From Propionibacterium freudenreichii subsp. freudenreichii (lineage in GTDB: Bacteria; Actinomycetota; Actinomycetes; Propionibacteriales; Propionibacteriaceae): a stretch of DNA of 32,000 nucleotides. Below, in pieces: positions 3,093-6,222 of the stretch. The notes under the pieces were generated by a model. It saw nothing but the letters and a program-made list of their open reading frames with translations. It did not search any database and was not told where the DNA came from. How positions within the stretch are numbered: the first letter of the stretch is position 1; every line of letters begins with the position of its first letter. The DNA is taken from the NCBI RefSeq assembly GCF_000940845.1, contig NZ_CP010341.1:1500001-1532000 (forward strand). The letters are read 5' to 3'. Both the position numbers and the translations under genes were made by a program.

Positions 3093-6222
<3,130 letters not shown>

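Follow-up and report, generated by a model that had tools for sequence, protein, structure and literature searches.

[quoted passage not shown] The stretch of Propionibacterium freudenreichii DNA analysed here (32,000 nt in all, referred to below as the window) holds an rrn operon in which the tetraloop of this element reads GCAA, the canonical loop being GAGA, and the locus thereby raises a plain question: is the difference an error of sequencing or assembly, the property of one divergent rrn copy, or a genuine trait of the lineage? A preliminary description of the window had set these three options side by side, and had added that a genuine trait would imply co-adapted translational GTPases.

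The placement of the two unusual bases comes first. Read on the minus strand, window 3343..3326 gives CCUUAGUACGCAAGGACC. The 23S rRNA gene that contains it (3094..6221, minus strand) is matched over its full length by the Rfam model RF02541 (2744.7 bits, model positions 1-2925), and UAGUACGCAAGGACC falls on the consensus UAGUACGAGAGGACC without a gap and with a posterior of '*' in every column (model positions 2671-2700). Within this covariance-model alignment the mismatches between window 3339..3326 (minus strand) and the SRL consensus are the two middle tetraloop bases only. A MAFFT alignment with E. coli rrlH agrees with RF02541 in placing A2660C at window 3333 and G2661A at window 3332, and numbers the surrounding bases as G2659 (3334), A2662 (3331), C2658 (3335), G2663 (3330) and G2655 (3338). 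On the consensus structure of the covariance model and the coordinate map, the Helix 95 hairpin (E. coli 2646-2674) spans 3319..3347 on the minus strand, with the stem CUGUCCU / GGGACGG around the SRL. Both alignments put the SRL core (E. coli 2654-2667, here AGUACGCAAGGACC) at 3326..3339 (minus strand) and the tetraloop G2659-C2660-A2661-A2662 at 3331..3334 (minus strand), with G2659 and A2662 unaltered. The substituted pair thus lies at 3332..3333 (minus strand), where 3333 corresponds to the ricin depurination site and 3332 to the 5' side of the alpha-sarcin cut. The bulged-G segment (A2654 G2655 U2656 A2657 ... G2664 A2665), the closing C2658-G2663 pair and the 3' GGACC are the same as in E. 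coli, and the initial reading of a GCAA loop in which A2660C and G2661A are the sole differences and these other elements are intact is therefore borne out by the two concordant alignments, the covariance model included.

Measured against the universal 12-nt SRL sequence AGUACGAGAGGA, the P. freudenreichii loop agrees at 10 of 12 positions, 2660 being C and 2661 being A. It nonetheless occupies the homologous domain VI position of a full-length 23S rRNA, as expected of the SRL (H95), and since both its position and the rest of the motif are those of the SRL, it is a sequence variant of this element rather than a non-member, despite the mismatch to the 12-nt sequence. This positional homology, with a full-length covariance-model alignment behind it, also sets aside chance as an explanation.

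The operon itself is complete, with the 16S, 23S and 5S rRNA genes all full length by Rfam: the 16S gene lies at 6561..8079 (minus strand; RF00177, 1555.1 bits) and the 5S gene at 2835..2951 (minus strand; RF00001, 104.2 bits). Upstream stands tyrS, encoding tyrosine-tRNA ligase (8760..10028, minus strand), whose product is 100% identical to the P. freudenreichii TyrRS (P0001), and which served as the synteny anchor for the same locus in other strains and in relatives. The wider neighbourhood is of a housekeeping character, comprising pheST, a SpoU rRNA methyltransferase, infC, hisG, ftsH, a ligase of the CysRS/MshC type and an aldo-keto reductase. The SpoU-family rRNA 2'-O-methyltransferase (21893-22753, minus strand) has an MRM3-like substrate-binding domain and adjoins pheS, an arrangement found also in Acidipropionibacterium timonense (L081:833-1639); it is a conserved housekeeping gene that is unrelated to the SRL variant. 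Directly downstream of the 5S gene is an ORF of 705 aa (636-2753, minus strand) with no Pfam match. It is intact in the window and in CCYR01000010, and its homologues elsewhere in P. freudenreichii (L006-L015) are of 676 aa or are split into pieces of 395+341, 352+341 or 246+341 aa, which suggests strain-variable frameshifts or pseudogenisation. Two spurious ORFs, one of 331 aa (5812-6807, plus strand) and one of 259 aa (5298-6077, plus strand), run antisense to the 23S gene, the spacer and the 16S gene, and several P. freudenreichii genomes in public databases list both as protein-coding.

One of these false annotations proved useful, as the 331-aa ORF called inside the rRNA genes gave a route to the second operon. 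Its look-up returned two contexts per genome, one at tyrS and one at NUDIX/groEL, and GCAA was read in both. At the tyrS-linked operon the loop is GCAA in 10 of 10 complete or near-complete genomes and in two contigs independently assembled from SRA; at the operon flanked by groEL and NUDIX it is GCAA in six genomes; and in the four genomes where the two operons could be read together it is GCAA in both. Compared with the window over 5.58 kb, each operon shows an identity of 99.9% or more. In total, GCAA was found in 12 P. freudenreichii assemblies and two SRA-derived assemblies, and an rrn copy with a canonical SRL was absent among the operons read, both per genome being GCAA. We take P. freudenreichii to have two rrn operons only, just two contexts having been returned by the ORF look-up, and with both of these contexts carrying GCAA, all of the rRNA of this organism must carry it as well. 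From the absence of any other rrn copy in these sequences we infer that the GCAA operons are functional and are not pseudo-copies.

An error of sequencing or assembly, or a minor or aberrant rrn copy, owes whatever a priori plausibility it has to the reputation of the SRL for invariance, and no support for it was found. The same bases recur in 12 independent assemblies, in two independent SRA assemblies, in both operons, and in independent metagenome contigs (L120 and L164). The repetition of GCAA across assemblies, SRA contigs and operons excludes error and 'divergent copy' alike, and to either we assign a practically negligible chance. A sequencing error or a single aberrant copy is hence a candidate that we have rejected, and the option of a genuine lineage trait is the one that has stood, on the strength of the 12 assemblies, the two SRA assemblies, both operons, and a sister lineage that is described below.

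Because the synteny of tyrS with rrn, and of rrn with a HAD gene, is conserved across the family, the SRL could be read in several relatives. Brooklawnia propionicigenes and A. timonense carry GAGA within the same helix flanks, as do a contig encoding the exact HAD protein of P. cyclohexanicum and two contigs of a closer relative whose TyrRS is 80% identical (GAGA in each case). When the P. cyclohexanicum-type and P. freudenreichii 23S sequences are compared (alignment A1), the 99 nt around the loop differ only in the AG to CA dinucleotide. Four metagenome contigs combine the P. freudenreichii flank with GCAA. Two of these are P. freudenreichii strains (99.2% and 99.8% identical), a third (L184) has a 23S sequence that is 97.1% identical to P. 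freudenreichii over 1.49 kb, and the fourth (L182) has one that is 92% identical. Downstream of the L182 operon is a NUDIX gene whose protein is 67% identical to the neighbour of rrn operon 2 in P. freudenreichii, and over 133 nt the 5S end of L182 matches, with 100% identity, the start of a contig of the closest non-freudenreichii relative (HAD 76% identical). The contigs of this closest relative (TyrRS P0002 on L073-L076; HAD P0122 and P0123 on L185-L193) end before the 23S gene, and its SRL state was read indirectly, through L182. Given the shared samples and the 133-nt identity, L182 probably belongs to the organism with the 86%-identical TyrRS. GCAA is therefore a derived clade trait, which P. 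freudenreichii has in common with one sister species or more: it is derived in view of the GAGA of Brooklawnia, Acidipropionibacterium, the P. cyclohexanicum type and the relative with 80%-identical TyrRS, and these same states place its origin after the split from the last two.

The preliminary description had also noted a G at position 1067 and an altered tip of helix 89, and had taken the three GTPase-site elements to deviate together. As comparisons with E. coli, the two additional observations are literally true. G at E. coli position 1067 (H43, the thiostrepton loop) lies at window 5058 on the minus strand, by alignment with E. coli and the coordinate map, and helix 89 (E. coli 2454-2498) at 3495..3539 on the minus strand, by a four-way alignment and the same map. 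That all three elements differ from E. coli, and that A2660 and G2661 share a network of hydrogen bonds with L6 and with residues of EF-G (PMC6562825), could be taken to favor a coordinated remodelling of the SRL, H43 1067 and the H89 tip, with EF-G and EF-Tu co-adapted to it. The four-way alignment speaks against this: GGCUUGGAAGC, with G1067, is identical in Brooklawnia and Acidipropionibacterium, both of which bear GAGA, and the H89 tip GAGCGCUCACAGCGAC, unlike that of E. coli, is likewise identical in these two GAGA-bearing genera. The sole H89 change specific to P. freudenreichii is a compensatory stem pair, G2464U (3529) with C2486A (3507). Furthermore, among other GCAA lineages with H43 in the available DNA, position 1067 is A in seven of nine and G in the remaining two. 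As such, with 1067 and H89 shared with GAGA relatives and 1067 varied among GCAA lineages, the SRL changed on its own rather than within a concerted remodelling, and the claim of joint deviation does not hold. The rRNA part of that model is largely refuted by these alignments, and we rejected a linked remodelling of H43 1067 and H89 on the four-way alignment and the 1067 states found elsewhere.

Two observations on these elements stand by themselves. The H89 stem pair, G-C in Brooklawnia, Acidipropionibacterium and E. coli, is U-A in P. freudenreichii. The positions homologous to 1067 in L077 and L081 are also G, and from the aligned sequences G1067 looks like a family-level trait of the Propionibacteriaceae; as this base is a key determinant for thiostrepton and nosiheptide, it would predict reduced binding of thiopeptides.

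The protein half of the coordinated model, in which the factors have changed along with the loop, is addressed by an existing E. coli strain. Kudrin et al. (2018, NAR, PMC5829649) built A2660C/G2661A in E. coli KT101, which is without all seven chromosomal rrn operons. Relying on the double mutant for all its rRNA, this delta-7 strain shows normal growth at 32-42 C but is sensitive to cold, growth being slightly impaired at 30 C; its EF-G GTPase activity is without significant change, and its vacant 70S ribosomes activate RelA less (PMC5829649). E. coli factors therefore work unadapted on GCAA ribosomes, and co-adapted factors are not implied by GCAA: the near-normal growth and essentially unchanged EF-G GTPase of the identical double mutant contradict that part of the preliminary description. 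Taken together with the rRNA comparisons, this makes a coordinated remodelling of the factor-binding site very improbable. By analogy with the E. coli strain, the RelA of P. freudenreichii would be activated less by vacant ribosomes.

RNAfold, which is a nearest-neighbour calculation, gives the hairpin the same predicted structure and the same energy (-11.1 kcal/mol) with GCAA or with GAGA. By sequence G-C-A-A, closed by C2658-G2663, is a GNRA tetraloop, and it should retain the GNRA fold in three dimensions; the initial suggestion to this effect gains support, at the level of prediction, from the equality in RNAfold and from the finding that all natural non-A2660 variants recovered (see below) are GNRA. 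The behaviour of the E. coli mutant agrees with the current view that the translational GTPases are activated by the A2662 phosphate and the loop geometry (PMC6562825). Decoding that depends on EF-Tu is likewise little affected by A2660U (PMC11912913). We consequently favor, at a probability of roughly 0.8, the view that GCAA is a genuine, fixed, clade-level SRL variant that is structurally conservative, nearly neutral or mildly costly, and in no need of co-adaptation. The change of A2660-G2661 to C-A (GAGA to GCAA) would have occurred on the branch to P. freudenreichii and its closest sister lineage, and would then have been homogenised across both rrn operons. It would leave untouched the sheared G2659/A2662 pair, C2658-G2663, the bulged-G motif and the A2662 phosphate that positions the catalytic histidine of EF-Tu and EF-G, the exchanged bases being those in the middle of the loop, which are stacked and exposed to solvent. 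Since these elements are untouched, the GCAA loop would still dock and activate the translational GTPases, and its persistence may be ascribed to its being structurally conservative and still GNRA. GCAA would, in short, be an alternative SRL state that is reached rarely but repeatedly in evolution.

That the state is reached repeatedly was apparent from an exact-pattern scan for TAGTACGCAAGGACCGG across 185,579 species representatives, taken as one genome per species. P. freudenreichii itself was missing from the results, presumably owing to masking or to the choice of representative. The absence of other Propionibacterium species is for this reason not used as evidence here, and relatives were reached through synteny. 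It returned 47 matches, of which 34 species representatives have the pattern in a true 23S context, and these 34 form 18 clusters at 90% identity; the fraction 34/185,579 has as its denominator all representatives and not those with an assembled 23S gene. Among these clusters are a clade of gut Clostridia MAGs comprising nine species, a group of six species with small, Dependentiae-like genomes, and the choanoflagellate symbionts Comchoanobacter and Synchoanobacter with a related MAG, with others in Saccharibacteria, Dojkabacteria, Holosporales, Babeliales, an Angustibacter MAG and elsewhere. The uniqueness implied by the preliminary description has consequently to be given up. The only isolate-type records in the representative scan are the two choanoflagellate symbionts, and P. 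freudenreichii is the only cultured, free-living organism among the GCAA bearers recognised.

Metagenomes were scanned for a base other than A at 2660 with the pattern YCYTAGTACGBNAGGACCGGR, to which GAAA (G2661A only) is external. Of 102 matching contigs, 99 are in an LSU context, divided among GCAA (81), GCGA (8), GGGA (5), GGAA (3), GUGA (1) and GUAA (1); these counts are not species-normalised. After dereplication at 90% the corresponding lineages number 30, 7, 5, 2, 1 and 1, so that C2660 is approximately four times commoner with A2661 than with G2661. No pyrimidine occurs at 2661 in any of the 99, and all of these non-A2660 loops are GNRA. A scan of viral contigs for the ratio of variant to canonical loops gave three canonical and no variants.

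Several further features of these contigs deserve mention in their own right. A number of them (L017, L022, L025, L035, L042 and some 35 metagenome contigs) share the flank GGAGGGCTGTCCCTAGTACGCAAGGACCGGGATGGGTAA, carry GCAA and belong to a small-genome group with chromosomes of 1.2-1.5 Mb, labelled Dependentiae or 'uncultured bacterium' and common in soil-type metagenomes; in this group GCAA looks to be fixed well above the species level. Eight AT-rich GCAA LSU contigs (L085, L088, L110, L115, L122, L158, L159 and L084) have 30-39% GC around the SRL and mostly miss the downstream CTGAAAGCATCTAAG motif, and they may represent organellar or extreme-endosymbiont LSU rRNAs. Many of the GCAA MAG contigs (L016-L062) start or stop only 30-650 nt upstream of the SRL, from which it would seem that assemblies tend to break within the conserved H92-H93 region and pass the SRL more easily when it is non-canonical. 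MAG contigs with an unusual SRL may thus assemble through the region more readily than canonical ones, and such a pattern would amount to an ascertainment bias in MAG-based censuses of rRNA variants.

Two considerations sit uneasily with near-neutrality. The first is the extreme rarity of the loop (34 of 185,579, counted over all representatives). The second is that single SRL mutations in E. coli are deleterious or lethal, according to a statement in PMC2896532. Moreover, the adjacent double change, with no others in 99 nt, may reflect selection or epistasis rather than drift. A rival to near-neutrality is an adaptive account, in which GCAA sheds the adenine targeted by RIPs and the guanine used by toxins of the alpha-sarcin/VapC20 type while GTPase activation is kept, and recurrent toxin pressure drives convergence. 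Such an account finds encouragement in the appearance of the exact dinucleotide in no fewer than 18 distinct sequence clusters and its dominance among non-A2660 variants, as well as in the fact that the double change is the sole difference from the congener in 99 nt. Ricin A chain owes its specificity to the GAGA loop and the adenine exposed in it (PMC6562825), and bacteria themselves deploy SRL-cleaving enzymes, namely VapC20 and VapC26 (PMC5175351) and the widespread SRLase1 family (bioRxiv 10.64898/2026.09.18.752725). In P. freudenreichii the substrate of a ricin-type N-glycosidase (GAGA with A2660) is missing, 2660 being C. The determinants for alpha-sarcin and VapC20 are the bulged G2655 and, in a GAGA loop, the scissile bond G2661-A2662; of these bases P. 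freudenreichii has G2655 and A2662, with A in place of G2661. The substrate adenine of ricin-type toxins and the alpha-sarcin guanine would both be lost in GCAA, and since C at 2660 leaves nothing there to depurinate, insensitivity of GCAA ribosomes to ricin-type toxins is a plausible prediction from the sequence.

The same enzymes furnish arguments on the other side. SRLase1 cuts between A2662 and G2663 in an EF-Tu-dependent manner (bioRxiv 10.64898/2026.09.18.752725), and given this cut site and this requirement the changed 2660 and 2661 may be irrelevant to it. For alpha-sarcin, the conformation and the bulged G weigh more than the loop sequence, and a secondary cut after A2660 has been described (PMC2896532). 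No toxin genes were seen in the 32,000-nt window. Relaxed selection is an equally good explanation for the many GCAA lineages that live as symbionts or epibionts with reduced genomes (Dependentiae, CPR, Holosporales and the choanoflagellate symbionts). On balance we consider escape from SRL toxins an unlikely origin of the variant. Its broader form, a convergent 'toxin-proof' SRL in P. freudenreichii, gut Clostridia, Dependentiae and CPR that is immune to depurinating RIPs and to G2661-directed RNases, and in which C2660 is best tolerated together with A2661, is similarly doubtful; such a tolerance would explain the preponderance of GCAA over GCGA of about 4:1 among lineages. Were the broader form true, P. 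freudenreichii would offer a natural model, and the first that can be cultured, of a bacterial ribosome resistant to ribotoxins.

For the reading that we prefer, a conservative variant fixed in a clade, it is worth separating what is already known from what is new. The SRL as an element is known, as is the GCAA state in the form of an engineered E. coli mutant, and public rRNA databases naturally contain the variant implicitly. Some rRNA databases have used the canonical SRL as an inclusion filter with at most 4 mismatches (PMC4574749). A search of the open-access literature found no paper on a natural GCAA SRL, nor on P. freudenreichii in that context; the one P. freudenreichii paper that it matched deals with a different sarcin-ricin motif site. 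What is new is that GCAA is naturally fixed in an actinobacterium in culture and in a sister species of it, that it recurs in different phyla, and that the natural 2660 variants recovered stay GNRA with GCAA dominant.

GCAA in P. freudenreichii contradicts the textbook 'universal' SRL sequence. Together with its repeated origin in nature and the GNRA pattern of every natural A2660 replacement recovered, it indicates that the real constraint on this element is the fold and A2662 and not base identity at A2660 and G2661. P. freudenreichii also offers a tractable natural model: a cultured, food-grade, genetically tractable bacterium that runs wholly on GCAA ribosomes, a counterpart in nature to the one engineered E. 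coli mutant, and a test bed for the role of A2660 in EF-G activation, for the activation of RelA by vacant ribosomes and for resistance to SRL toxins. The mechanism of GTPase activation is not overturned, and the E. coli data predict mild phenotypes, such that the importance of the variant is in our estimation moderate.

Set beside known systems, the P. freudenreichii loop agrees with the canonical bacterial SRL (H95, AGUACGAGAGGACC) in its domain VI position, helix, bulged-G motif, C2658-G2663 pair, G2659 and A2662, and in 12 of 14 core bases; it differs in that the canonical loop has AG as its middle tetraloop bases and P. freudenreichii has CA, and is thus without the ricin-target adenine and the alpha-sarcin-site guanine. 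Among GNRA tetraloops generally, which have G at the first position, a purine at the third and A at the fourth, GCAA is a standard member; the loop of the SRL docks protein factors instead of making an RNA-RNA tertiary contact, and so its N and R are normally frozen as A and G. The other natural GCAA SRLs (Clostridia, Dependentiae/Babeliales, Saccharibacteria, Dojkabacteria, Holosporales, Ca. Comchoanobacter/Synchoanobacter and Angustibacter) have the same dinucleotide swap in an otherwise canonical SRL; with their different flanks and phyla they represent independent origins, and they are mostly uncultured and in many cases reduced-genome symbionts. The E. coli mutant of Kudrin et al. has exactly the same GCAA tetraloop as P. 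freudenreichii, as the sole rRNA in the cell, and is the best functional proxy available. It was, however, made in the laboratory in a gammaproteobacterium and is described in a paper that draws no link to natural variation, whereas the GCAA of P. freudenreichii is natural, fixed and inherited across species.
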